64,000 bases of DNA. Source: an uncultured Sphingomonadaceae bacterium (GTDB lineage Bacteria > Pseudomonadota > Alphaproteobacteria > Sphingomonadales > Sphingomonadaceae). A program made the position numbers and the translations under genes. The stretch is taken from positions 1,228-65,227 of the forward strand of contig CAXTPT010000011.1 in assembly GCA_964246315.1 (NCBI GenBank), written 5' to 3'. Below, piece by piece: positions 56,988-60,060 of this stretch. The notes beneath the pieces were generated by a model. That model searched no databases. It was not told where the DNA came from and worked only from the letters and a program-made list of their open reading frames with translations. Every line of letters starts with the position of its first letter. Within the stretch, counting starts at the first letter, position 1.

Positions 56988-57683
56988 TCAGCCAGGGCGG
57001 CGGAGGATTACTTCGAGCGGGGTCGATTCATCCCACAATTCGGTGCTGCGGCCGCTACCTTCAGGGGCGTAGCGCACCGCCACCCGAACATCGCCCAAGC
57101 CCGTTGCCGCCAGCGGCGCGCGAACCAGGCGGGTCATCGCCTCCCGTCCGCTCTCGCGCGCTTTGGCGATCCAGACAGGATCGTTGGCGGTCTCGGCGAC
57201 GATGCCGCCCGCACGCGAAGACACTTGCTGCTGCAGCCGCTGCATGCTGCCGCGCGGCACGATCAGGCCCTTGGGCAGCTCGGCAGTGCCGCGTGCCTCG
57301 TCGATGTTGGGCGCCGCCGGCACGACGTCGGGCACCGTCACGACCATCGTCCGGTTTTGCGCATTCCAGCGCATGTTAGCGGATCCGAAGCGGCGCAGAT
57401 CGACGAAATAGTCGACGCTGTAGGGGAAGCTGCGCGACTGGGTATTGACGATCCGGCCGAACAGAACTGCGTCGCTCGCGCTGCTGCGCACCTGGCCAGA
57501 CAGCGTCGCGACCTTGAGGCTGACCGTCTTGTCGAAGGTCGCGTCGATGATCTTCGCTGATTCGTACGGCACATTGGTTTCGGCGGTCTGGCGCTTGCCA
57601 TGTTCGCGCCACAACAGGATGGCGAGGAGCGCCACAAGGCCGACCCCCACTGCAGCCCAGCGAGACGGCGGGATGGGGGTCAT
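56988..57683 (-). CDS. DUF4230-like membrane-anchored protein
   Basis: N-terminal TM, YSVDYFVDL, V.VP; the 522-aa track ORF is over-extended. Confidence 0.65.
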   Translation of the reverse strand: MTPIPPSRWAAVGVGLVALLAILLWREHGKRQTAETNVPYESAKIIDATFDKTVSLKVATLSGQVRSSASDAVLFGRIVNTQSRSFPYSVDYFVDLRRFGSANMRWNAQNRTMVVTVPDVVPAAPNIDEARGTAELPKGLIVPRGSMQRLQQQVSSRAGGIVAETANDPVWIAKARESGREAMTRLVRAPLAATGLGDVRVAVRYAPEGSGRSTELWDESTPLEVILRRPG

Positions 57684-58528
57684 GCCGCGCGGCGCCAATC
57701 GTCCCCCGACCGCGCCACGACGCCCCGCTGTTCGAGGTCGATCAGATGCGCCAGCACCGACCGGCCTGCCGCTCCGTAAAGCCGCTGGTCGAGCCCCGCA
57801 TACATTTTTGGCACCATCGCCTCGACCAGCCCGATGCCGCCGTCGATCAGGCGGAGGATTTGACCCTCGCGCTGCTTGCGGTGACCGGCCAGCGAGCGGA
57901 CGAAGCGTTGCGGCTGTTCCACGGGATCGCCATGCGCGGGATAATAGATGACGTCCCGGCGGGTCTCGAGCTTGGCGAGGCTGGCCATGTAATCGGCCAT
58001 GTCGCCATCGGGCGGGCTGATCACCGTGGTCGACCAGCCCATGACATGATCGCCGGTGAACAGCGCCCCCTCCTCCATCAGGTCGAAGCAGAGGTGGTTC
58101 GAGGTGTGGCCGGGCGTCGCGACGGCGGCGAGGGTCCAGCCGGAGCCGCTGACCGTTTCGCCGTCGGCCATCACCCGCGCCGGAGCATAGGTGTCGTCGA
58201 AAGCGGCGTCGGCACGCGGCCCCAGATCTTCCAGGACCAATGGCGCACAACCCATCACCGGCGCGGCGGTCCGTGCGGCGAGCGGCTTGGCCGCTGGCGA
58301 ATGGTCCCTGTGCGTGTGCGTGCACAATATGGCGACGATCCGTTCCCCGGCGGTCGCCTCGACGATCGCGTCGAGATGCTCGGCATCGTCGGGGCCGGGG
58401 TCGATCACTGCCACGTCGCCCTGCCCGATCACATAGGTCTGCGTGCCGGTGAAGGTAAAGGGCGACGGATTGCCGGCCGTAATGCGCCGCACCAGCGGAG
58501 ACAATTGCACCGAGCGTTCGCAGGTCAT
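57680..58528 (-). CDS. MBL-fold metallo-hydrolase (LACTB2-like)
   Basis: NPSPFTFTGT.TY, IDPGP, THTHRDHS, TPGHTSNH, FTGDH.M, PAHG. Confidence 0.92.
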   Translation of the reverse strand: MTCERSVQLSPLVRRITAGNPSPFTFTGTQTYVIGQGDVAVIDPGPDDAEHLDAIVEATAGERIVAILCTHTHRDHSPAAKPLAARTAAPVMGCAPLVLEDLGPRADAAFDDTYAPARVMADGETVSGSGWTLAAVATPGHTSNHLCFDLMEEGALFTGDHVMGWSTTVISPPDGDMADYMASLAKLETRRDVIYYPAHGDPVEQPQRFVRSLAGHRKQREGQILRLIDGGIGLVEAMVPKMYAGLDQRLYGAAGRSVLAHLIDLEQRGVVARSGDDWRRAA

Positions 58529-58553
58529 GCGCGCGATGTAGCATCGCGCGCAT
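58527..58553. promoter_or_regulatory. Perfect 12-bp inverted repeat over the MBL start codon
   Basis: ATGCGCGCGATG-TAG-CATCGCGCGCAT. Confidence 0.5.
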
Positions 58554-58565
58554 CACTTACTAGGC

Positions 58566-59090
58566 TCAGTGGACGTTGATCGTTCCCGCCCTGGCAAGCG
58601 CATCGCGCACCTGTTGGCCGATACGGGCATCTGCCAGCGCCTTGCTCACGTGCGCGGCGGTGTTACGCGCCATCTCGGCACGCGCCATGGCGTCCGCAAC
58701 GCGCGCATCAATATTGGCGTCGGCCATTGCCGCGCGAACATTCTCGCGGGTCGCCAGCGCCATCGCACGCTGCACGTCGGCCTGCTTCAGGATGGTGCCG
58801 GTATAGTCGTTGACGCGGCGCGAAATGTCATCGCTCATCGCCTTCACTTGCGGGTCGTCGATCGTGCGGCCGTCAGGACAAGTCATCACCGAGCCGTTGA
58901 TGTTCAGGTTGCGCTGATGGCTGTCGACGTCGACGCCGCATTTGGCCTGGATGAAGGCCTTCTGCGCGGGCGTGAACCAGCTTGCGGGCATGTGCCGCGG
59001 GACGGCGGCGCCGATCGTGTCGTGCGCGGTAAGGGGGGCGGCAGTCGCCGCAAAGGCGAGGCCGAACGGCAGAAGAAAGGCGTGCTTCAT
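58566..59090 (-). CDS. Hypothetical secreted protein (Cys pair plus Ala-rich helical tail)
   Basis: Signal peptide, two Cys 20 aa apart, no SD (apparently leaderless). Confidence 0.75.
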   Translation of the reverse strand: MKHAFLLPFGLAFAATAAPLTAHDTIGAAVPRHMPASWFTPAQKAFIQAKCGVDVDSHQRNLNINGSVMTCPDGRTIDDPQVKAMSDDISRRVNDYTGTILKQADVQRAMALATRENVRAAMADANIDARVADAMARAEMARNTAAHVSKALADARIGQQVRDALARAGTINVH

Positions 59091-59096
59091 GCCGCC

Positions 59097-59138
59097 GCAA
59101 TATGCGAAGCTACATTTGTAGTCAACTACAATTGTAGC
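59097..59138 (-). promoter_or_regulatory. Sigma70 promoter with tandem TACA-NN-TGTA operators (BlaI/MecI/CopY-type)
   Basis: CTACATTTGTAG (59110-59121) and CTACAATTGTAG (59126-59137) flank TTGACT (59125-59120); N17; TATTGC; 6 nt; ATG. Confidence 0.75.
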
Positions 59139-59143
59139 GTGAC

Positions 59144-59479
59144 CTAGCTTGCGGCGTTTTCCGCGCCGAACAGCTCGTGCAGCTCACCCGCTTCGTACAT
59201 CTCCATCATGATGTCCGATCCGCCGACGAATTCGCCGTTGACATAGAGCTGAGGAATGGTCGGCCAGTCGCTATAGGCCTTGATGCCCTGACGGATGCCC
59301 TGATCCTGCAACACGTCCACCGTTTCGAATTCGACGCCGAGATGTTCGAGAATGGAGATCGCGCGGCTCGAAAAACCGCATTGCGGAAAAAGCGGCGTGC
59401 CCTTCATGAACAACACTACCGGGTTCGCCTTGACGATCCCTTCGATCCGGGCGGTCGCGTCGTCGGTCATATCACTCAT
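59144..59479 (-). CDS. grxD: Monothiol glutaredoxin Grx4
   Basis: LFMKGTP.FPQCGFS, SDWPTIPQLYV.GEFVGGSDI. Confidence 0.97.
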   Translation of the reverse strand: MSDMTDDATARIEGIVKANPVVLFMKGTPLFPQCGFSSRAISILEHLGVEFETVDVLQDQGIRQGIKAYSDWPTIPQLYVNGEFVGGSDIMMEMYEAGELHELFGAENAAS

Positions 59480-59485
59480 TCCCCA

Positions 59486-59731
59486 TCAATCTCGTGCCGA
59501 GGTGGGCACCGCGGTGGTCAGTTGCAAGGCATGAAGTTCGCCGCCCATCCGTCCGCCGAGCGCGGTATAGACCGCCTTTTGCTGCGAGATACGGCTCTGC
59601 CCCCGAAAACTCTCCGCCACGACGCGCGCGGCCCAATGGTCGTTGTCGCCCGCCAGGTCGGTCAGTTCGACTTCGGCATCGGGTATGCCCGCCTTGATCA
59701 GCGCTTCGATGTCGGCGGCGGCCATCGGCAT
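59486..59731 (-). CDS. BolA family protein
   Basis: GD.DHW...VV...F.G.SR..Q...VY.ALG..MG.ELHAL.L; grxD-linked. Confidence 0.93.
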   Translation of the reverse strand: MPMAAADIEALIKAGIPDAEVELTDLAGDNDHWAARVVAESFRGQSRISQQKAVYTALGGRMGGELHALQLTTAVPTSARD

Positions 59732-59736
59732 CGCGG

Positions 59737-60060
59737 TTACTGCGATTCCATCAGCTGGCGGCGCGCCTCGACGGTCTTGTCATCAAGGACTTTGCGGATT
59801 TCGCCATCGTCCGTGTCGACCTTCGCCGCGGTCAGATCGCCGAGCAGCTTGCGCACCACATCCTCGTCGCCCATTTCCTCGAAATCCGCCTGCACCACCG
59901 CCTTGGCATAGGCATCGGCCTCTTCGGGCGTCAGTCCCATTTTCTCGGCGGCCCACATGCCGGCAAGCTTGTTGCGCCGCGCGGTGACGCGGAACATCAT
60001 CTCTTCGTCGCGCGCGAATTTGGTTTCGAAGGCGCGCTCGCGATCGTCGAAAGTGCTCAT
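59737..60060 (-). CDS. DUF1476 protein (F1Fo ATPase inhibitor zeta-like)
   Basis: MSTFDDRERAFETKFARDEE..FR..ARRNKL.G.WAAE. Confidence 0.9.
   Translation of the reverse strand: MSTFDDRERAFETKFARDEEMMFRVTARRNKLAGMWAAEKMGLTPEEADAYAKAVVQADFEEMGDEDVVRKLLGDLTAAKVDTDDGEIRKVLDDKTVEARRQLMESQ

Follow-up and report, generated by a model that had tools for sequence, protein, structure and literature searches.

What does a 30-bp palindrome that stands in front of three co-oriented genes control, and what acts on it? The palindrome lies at positions 59109-59138 of a 64,000-nucleotide stretch of DNA from an uncultured Sphingomonadaceae bacterium (contig CAXTPT010000011.1; the whole stretch is referred to as the window), between grxD and the gene for a secreted protein of 174 amino acids (aa), which is followed by genes for a metallo-beta-lactamase (MBL)-fold hydrolase and a DUF4230-like protein. 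A sequence-only reading had taken the palindrome for a pair of operators of the BlaI/MecI/CopY repressor family, acted on in trans. We evaluated this proposal over the source genome (2.56 Mb, 66% GC, 107 contigs, 99.95% complete) and in its relatives. The explanation that we favor, and consider likely as a whole, is that the boxes are BlaI operators, that repression is released by an M56 protease, and that the target is a periplasmic protein related to the sensor domains of such proteases.

The probable paired operators and the BlaI repressor of the genome

On the plus strand the palindrome reads GCTACATTTGTAGTCAACTACAATTGTAGC; its arms (14 nt each, 93% complementary) are separated by 2 nt. 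It is a pair of CTACAnnTGTAG boxes at a spacing of 16 bp, as the sequence-only reading had described, and these boxes hold the only two TACANNTGTA dyads (TACAnnTGTA) in the window (59111-59120 and 59127-59136), compared with an expected count of 0.03 in shuffles of the window, none of 100 of which gave two. The boxes also agree with the extended CopY/BlaI consensus RNYKACANNTGTMRNY (Table 1), which was derived for CopY of Gram-positive bacteria (PMC7253601).

Over the whole genome there are four perfect CTACANNTGTAG sites, every TACANNTGTA site is a CTACAnnTGTAG site, and box pairs occur at two places only, the 174-aa gene and the promoter of a blaI gene on contig C55; the same two tandem pairs remain the sole ones when two mismatches per box are allowed. 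The 12-mer of the proximal box, CTACAAATGTAG, is the 12-mer of both boxes at the blaI promoter, where the spacing is 19 bp and the pair immediately precedes blaI, with a TTGCAT on one side and the GGAGGA-ATG of the gene on the other. Candidates for further regulon members were rejected, because none of the four one-mismatch boxes in the genome has a partner box and the only one that was checked (C4:37349) sits inside an open frame. Lone TACANNTGTA sites in five relatives (G004, G018, G106, G593 and G552) had no consistent target. In these same five genomes the dyad is found at 3-6 sites per genome, versus 13-23 for the reversed pattern, and it seems to be avoided outside operators.

The blaI gene on C55 is the only PF03965 (BlaI/MecI/CopY) gene of the genome (E = 2.5e-22), and there is none within the 64-kb window, in keeping with the earlier statement that three co-oriented genes follow the operator and that no repressor is encoded in the window. 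The condition under which the sequence-only reading would have fallen, a genome devoid of BlaI-family genes, does not apply. The start of the genome's only M56 gene (PF05569, E = 1.8e-27) overlaps the blaI stop codon, giving exactly one BlaI/M56 pair, whose promoter carries the only other two boxes. The two genes open an operon of four (C55:2398-7404, partly covered by locus L001) that continues, after a 33-nt gap with GGAGAG, into a gene for a 280-aa secreted protein and then, by a TGATG overlap, into one for a TonB-dependent receptor (Plug domain). The M56 protein has an intact HExxH motif (AHELAH); its protease domain is followed by a transmembrane segment and, at the C-terminus, by repeats of about 35 aa (…IHGVTPxWxRxLxxAGY…), which its periplasmic C-terminus has in common with the 280-aa protein.

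These sequences bear on the signal, for which beta-lactams and metals had been suggested. Because the M56 protein has no transpeptidase/penicillin-binding domain (PF00905; a Pfam scan gives PF05569 only), a beta-lactam signal is not indicated, although the pair belongs to the BlaIR family. The BlaI protein (125 aa) contains no cysteine and so cannot form the C-terminal CxC...CxC metal site of CopY; it is therefore not a copper sensor of the CopY type, and copper sensing by the repressor is not indicated either.

The operator was then compared over seven orthologous loci (three genus genomes and four metagenome contigs), in all of which the 174-aa gene sits between grxD and the MBL gene. All 30 bp are identical in six of the seven, and the seventh departs from them at a single base of the 4-bp spacer; the encoded proteins are 58-71% identical and the intergenic flanks differ. 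The other two genus genomes with the 174-aa gene likewise have exactly four boxes each, one tandem pair at this gene and one at blaI. Of 25 genus genomes, five have BlaI and three have the 174-aa gene, all three with BlaI (hypergeometric probability of about 0.004, for carriers that are close relatives and not independent).

This pattern of conservation bears on two other explanations of the palindrome. It might be mainly a structural element of RNA or DNA, serving as terminator or stabilizer of grxD and resembling a BlaI operator by chance; it begins 5 nt past the stop codon of grxD, with a folding energy of -18.2 kcal/mol (z = -3.4). Two palindromic boxes, however, always give a hairpin by construction, there is no U-tract, the sequence is invariant rather than covarying across the footprint, the same 12-mer is found on the blaI promoter in four genomes, and in genus members without the 174-aa gene the palindrome is not kept after grxD, so that we give this explanation hardly any credence. 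Alternatively, CTACAnnTGTAG at the 174-aa promoter might be recognized by a transcription factor other than BlaI, given that the 10-bp core alone predicts binding poorly (PMC7253601). We regard this as highly improbable: in every genome examined the blaI promoters have the boxes too, genus members without BlaI lack the 174-aa gene, and the bases on either side of the core agree with the extended consensus of the family (PMC7253601).

On the gene strand, the grxD stop codon is followed by 5 nt, the operator, 18 nt and the ATG of the 174-aa open reading frame. With no Shine-Dalgarno sequence before this ATG, and a predicted -10 element that ends 6 nt upstream of it, a leaderless mRNA is plausible, and we consider it probable. 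The earlier description of a leaderless promoter with its -35 clamped by the boxes is matched by the overlap of TTGACT with the proximal box and by the missing Shine-Dalgarno sequence, but a scan with the Escherichia coli consensus calls no promoter at the 174-aa gene. The same scan calls no terminator at the locus, and no U-tract is present.

Genome-wide exclusivity, footprinting, the phyletic pattern and knowledge of the family together make it very likely, in our judgment, that BlaI represses both the 174-aa promoter and the blaI operon, and that M56 releases this repression upon an envelope signal. In the resting state two BlaI dimers would occupy the -35 region and silence the 174-aa gene. 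An envelope signal would activate the M56 membrane metalloprotease (with its HExxH motif and no penicillin-binding domain), BlaI would be cleaved, and the blaI operon and the 174-aa gene would be derepressed together, the 174-aa product then leaving the cytoplasm through Sec and probably forming a C51-C71 disulfide. We infer the binding, the leaderless start, the proteolytic release and the periplasmic role from sequence comparison. The earlier proposal of a trans-regulated member of a BlaI regulon, with an uncharacterized two-cysteine secreted protein as effector, can thus be retained as a prediction on the strength of the exclusivity of the boxes, the conservation of the operator and the phyletic pattern.

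The secreted two-cysteine family and its link to M56 sensors

What kind of protein is placed under this control? The 174-aa protein, which neither Pfam nor NCBIfam matches, starts with a signal peptide; a conserved alpha/beta domain of about 100 aa follows, in which C51, C71 and R92 are invariant, and then a helical repeat tail that is rich in Ala and Arg and varies. The fold of an AlphaFold2 model computed with the family alignment (predicted local distance difference test score [pLDDT] 84.7) runs from a helix through a three-stranded sheet to a long helix, with long helices after it, and a Foldseek search of the PDB with this model found no matching fold (best E = 1.4). An alignment of the orthologues (A1; 161-193 aa) shows helical tails that differ by whole blocks of about 17-30 residues, which suggests gain and loss of repeats while the two-cysteine (2-Cys) domain stays constant.

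The genome contains a single gene with a 2-Cys domain. Close relatives are few: a set of 5.8 billion clusters has 10, including a hypothetical protein of Sphingomonas antarctica. A phmmer search of 1.8 billion representatives returned 41 relatives at E <= 1e-3, of which one, a 1016-aa repeat protein, was judged spurious and excluded, the other 40 being small proteins of 111-257 aa. A profile search with the family retrieved 54 clusters at E <= 1e-5, and the family comprises at least 90 clusters in all. Its members have in common a signal peptide, the domain of about 100 aa with C51, C71 and R92 (consensus …GPxxTxAExAxIxxKCGY…GVLxCxNGRRVDDPEVRAM…), and an Ala/Arg/Glu-rich helical tail of varying length; scanned singly against Pfam, the 40 aligned relatives gave only isolated, single-member matches to unrelated families. 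When 301 genomes of the order and 401 of the family were searched by profile, with few first-look candidates scored, the domain turned up in at least four genomes.

The connection with BlaI extends to distant homologues (about 30% identity). A BlaI-type box lies within about 45 bp upstream of the start codon in all five that were inspected, namely GACTACATTTGTAGTC in another genus of the family (G106), GACTACATACGTAATC in L058, GACTACATTTGTAATC in L059, GCTACAAGTGTAGC in L060 and GCTACACTTGTAGC in L061, with one base of the TACA/TGTA core changed in two of the five; together with the seven orthologues, this gives an upstream box in 12 of 12 loci inspected. The homologue in L058 (5001-5774; P0021) is a 257-aa protein with two tandem 2-Cys domains. 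The L058, L060 and L061 homologues, each with a single BlaI-type box, share a second conserved neighborhood, in which they converge with a gene for a T2SSE-type ATPase; EamA and DUF6265 genes follow in L058 and L060, and L061 ends at the ATPase gene.

Beyond what had been proposed from the sequence, the target is homologous to the sensor domains of BlaR-type proteases. In two Sphingosinicella genomes (G593 and G552) the chromosomal slot between grxD and the MBL gene holds two boxes followed by blaI and M56, and in the Sphingosinicella M56 protein (567 aa; P0052 has the annotation M56 family metallopeptidase, from Sphingosinicella humi) the periplasmic C-terminal part is the domain of the 174-aa family, helical tail included (profile E = 9e-40; BLASTP against the 174-aa protein, E = 1e-10, 140 aa aligned at 30% identity). 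Metagenome contig L059 has the gene row zeta-bolA-grxD-[box]-homologue-[box]-blaI-M56-MBL-DUF4230-nadA, so that the same slot contains a complete homologue-blaI-M56 module, and the M56 protein there carries a shortened, degenerate copy of the 2-Cys domain (hhalign probability 95%). In a tree of the domain the fused copies form one group, and the 174-aa protein falls inside a well-supported clade of free-standing proteins, which rules out that the 174-aa gene is a recent remnant of a blaI-M56 fusion of the Sphingosinicella type. Loss of an adjacent blaI-M56 pair from this slot, out of an arrangement like that of L059, is possible. The simplest history suggested by these comparisons is that an old free-standing BlaI target was fused once to the protease, and that in the present clade the target stayed, or came to be, controlled in trans by the only BlaI left.

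The Sphingosinicella fusion, the adjacency in L059 and the invariable operator lead us to the possibility that the exported protein acts with or on a BlaR-type periplasmic sensor, by sequestering the ligand, as a co-receptor, or as a feedback inhibitor. It might, for instance, be a soluble copy of the sensor module and feed back on the system by binding either the protease or the cue that the sensor binds. We put this at somewhat below even odds, and about equally likely is a simpler account in which the boxes are BlaI operators and the 174-aa protein serves as a plain effector of the stress response, for example as a chaperone in the periplasm or by binding a metal or a toxic compound, with neither contact with the sensor nor feedback on it. 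Envelope stress systems commonly produce small, helical periplasmic stress proteins, the sensor domain of the C55 M56 protein is unrelated to the 174-aa protein, and the latter nests among free-standing homologues in the tree, all of which fit the plain effector; the presence of the same domain as the periplasmic domain of M56 in Sphingosinicella and, degenerate, in L059 argues against it, as does the tie of the gene to BlaI boxes in every lineage sampled, which suits a signaling component better.

Several points weigh against the account as a whole, and some of them against its sensor part in particular. The C55 M56 sensor is of a different type, with the 35-aa repeats that it shares with the 280-aa protein, so that a common ligand of sensor and 174-aa protein does not follow directly, and this type of sensor is also found in two genus members without the 174-aa gene. 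The tree sets the 174-aa protein among the free-standing members and not beside the fused sensor domains, which makes the fusion argument a Rosetta-stone inference across lineages. At the level of the operators, the spacing of the boxes varies among promoters (16, 19 and 22 bp), leaving no fixed cooperative geometry evident; TACANNTGTA by itself is not enough for CopY binding (PMC7253601); and the missing promoter call at the 174-aa gene belongs here as well.

A bolder version, to which we give less weight and which we consider rather doubtful, is that the 2-Cys family is a detachable sensor module of BlaR-type proteases, fused in Sphingosinicella, and in most other carriers a free periplasmic protein whose gene is in every case controlled by BlaI. 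It is a tentative part of this idea that the free protein docks on the protease, perhaps by way of the Ala/Arg-rich tails present on both; equally speculative is that the docked protein delivers the signal or switches the protease off, which would make it a self-regulated, soluble co-receptor. Were this true, the same logic would apply to the repeat domain of the C55 M56 protein and the 280-aa secreted repeat protein, and non-canonical BlaIR systems may in general be built with an exported paralogue of their sensor. The C55 M56 protein and the 280-aa protein do form a second pair of sensor and exported paralogue in this genome.

The downstream genes and their promoter

Does the regulated unit extend to the two genes that follow, as the sequence-only reading implied? 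The coding regions (59090-58566, 58528-57680 and 57683-56988, all on the minus strand) are separated by a 37-bp gap after the first and by an ATGA overlap of stop and start codons (57680-57683) between the MBL and DUF4230-like genes, which are predicted to be translationally coupled. The second gene encodes an LACTB2-like protein, as the sequence-only reading had guessed: its best solved relative is human LACTB2 (4AD9; E = 2.6e-31, residues 4-276, full length), and every NCBIfam model for beta-lactamases falls far short of its cut-off on it. The assignment of the third protein is mixed: precomputed PF14014 matches exist in orthologues (an unmarked one in L059, a weak one in L009), but its own score stays below the cut-off (Table 1).

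A single operon under BlaI control would be in line with the co-orientation of the three genes, the short gap, the want of a U-tract terminator, and the fact that in three lineages a BlaI/M56 module immediately precedes this MBL gene. Against this stands the organization of relatives. The MBL gene is present in 25 of 25 relatives tested and, wherever the fetched flank reached the neighboring genes, the DUF4230-like gene comes next within the genus, and nadA lies downstream both there and in several further families of the order, with or without the 174-aa gene or BlaI. In the window and in relatives L030-L044, L054, L057 and L059, the arrangement GC(C/T)ACAT(C/G)-N6-ATG before the MBL gene is kept in all arrangements examined, irrespective of whether a BlaI module stands upstream, and genus members without the insert have TTGCGC 17 nt upstream of this -10 (TTGCGC-N17-GC(C/T)ACAT(C/G)-N6-ATG). 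No BlaI-type box precedes the MBL gene.

A GC-rich hairpin at 58553-58527, which holds the MBL -10 element in its loop and 3' arm and ends in the MBL start codon, also argues against a single operon, as it would bury this codon on any read-through transcript and be absent from the leaderless transcript of the MBL gene itself. Hairpins at the MBL start recur, with different stem sequences, in five of the seven orthologous loci, and we regard this one as a probable insulator or 3'-end structure of the upstream transcript. A single BlaI-controlled operon is thus unlikely, and some read-through from the 174-aa gene into the MBL gene is no more probable. The MBL and DUF4230-like genes are probably not members of the regulon, because they are syntenic in the absence of the 174-aa gene and have a conserved leaderless promoter of their own; they are better described as neighbors, a conserved housekeeping pair that would be transcribed from that promoter. 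Upstream of the operator, 59144-60060 of the window forms a conserved row of zeta (ATPase inhibitor subunit), bolA and grxD, and in at least three lineages a BlaI module or its remnant is inserted in the slot between grxD and the MBL gene.

Table 1. Features of the locus in window coordinates
Feature	Position	Strand	Details
174-aa secreted protein	58566..59090	-	Signal peptide MKHAFLLPFGLAFAATAAPLTA/HD
30-bp operator, two BlaI-type boxes	59109..59138	-	Gene strand GCTACAATTGTAG-TTGA-CTACAAATGTAGC
Distal box CTACAATTGTAG	59126..59137	-	Perfect 12-bp palindrome; 15/16 against RNYKACANNTGTMRNY (PMC7253601)
Proximal box CTACAAATGTAG	59110..59121	-	Overlaps -35; 16/16 positions against RNYKACANNTGTMRNY (PMC7253601)
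Predicted -35 hexamer TTGACT	59120..59125	-	Overlaps proximal box; read from sequence; TTGACT/TTGGCT in seven loci
Predicted -10 element TATTGC	59097..59102	-	17 nt past -35, ends 6 nt before ATG; TAnnnC in orthologues
LACTB2-like MBL-fold hydrolase, C-terminal winged helix	57680..58528	-	PF00753 8e-21; PF17778 (BLACT_WH) 9e-13
Membrane-anchored DUF4230-like protein	56988..57683	-	PF14014 E 6e-4, 20.4 bits versus cut-off 27
MBL gene -10 element GCTACATC	58535..58542	-	6 nt before MBL ATG; leaderless
GC-rich 12-bp hairpin ATGCGCGCGATG-cta-CATCGCGCGCAT	58527..58553	-	-27.4 kcal/mol, z -4.0; no U-tract
grxD, monothiol glutaredoxin (upstream neighbor)	59144..59479	-	Stop codon 5 nt before operator

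Relation to known repressor-protease systems

The closest general models are BlaI/BlaR1 and MecI/MecR1 of Staphylococcus aureus and Bacillus licheniformis, with which the present system shares a winged-helix PF03965 repressor adjoining an M56 zinc protease with HExxH, paired TACA/TGTA dyads over the promoter (a predicted one here) and, presumably, an autoregulated regulator operon and release by proteolysis. It differs from them in having neither a penicillin-binding sensor domain nor a beta-lactamase or penicillin-binding protein as target, in the location of the target on another contig than the regulators, in its Gram-negative alphaproteobacterial host, and in the inclusion of a TonB-dependent receptor in the operon. 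The logic proposed for the 174-aa protein recalls CpxP, Spy and ZraP of E. coli, small and largely helical periplasmic proteins that are induced by an envelope-sensing pathway and feed back on its sensor. This likeness is one of logic only: we found no similarity of sequence or fold, repression here would end by proteolysis of a repressor rather than through a two-component system, and the feedback is hypothetical.

The CopY/CopR cop-box of Gram-positive bacteria likewise has the TACAnnTGTA core, flanks that fit RNYKACANNTGTMRNY and two operators over the promoter (PMC7253601), which in the present case is a predicted one. CopY, however, senses Cu(I) through its C-terminal CxC motifs, whereas the BlaI protein described here is free of cysteine and is paired with a protease, so that the repressor itself can be discounted as a metal sensor.

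The regulatory kind as such is known, in that the BlaIR family includes members that do not respond to beta-lactams (PMC13492132). One of these is CenIR of Clostridioides difficile, a BlaIR pair without a beta-lactam domain; the protein that it chiefly controls is small, exported and of unknown function (PMC13492132). The two systems have in common a small regulon, the lack of a domain that binds beta-lactams, a small exported main target and a signal that is unknown; CDR_0474, however, adjoins cenIR and is unique to C. difficile (PMC13492132), whereas the target described here is unlinked, is a member of a family with 90 or more clusters, and has homologues among the M56 sensor domains of other genomes. 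What appears to be new is an unlinked target with an operator defined by comparison, an unnamed protein family that is a constant target of BlaI and elsewhere a BlaR sensor domain, and a chromosomal slot in which several evolutionary states of the module can be seen. The locus would thereby offer a minimal alphaproteobacterial BlaIR regulon (the regulator operon plus one unlinked gene, with the operator obtained from phylogenetic footprinting) and would correct the tempting reading of the adjacent MBL-fold gene as a regulated lactamase. It would also tie an unnamed secreted family to BlaR sensor domains by homology, gene neighborhood and shared operators, and so provide a candidate means, open to testing, of feeding or damping atypical BlaR sensors.

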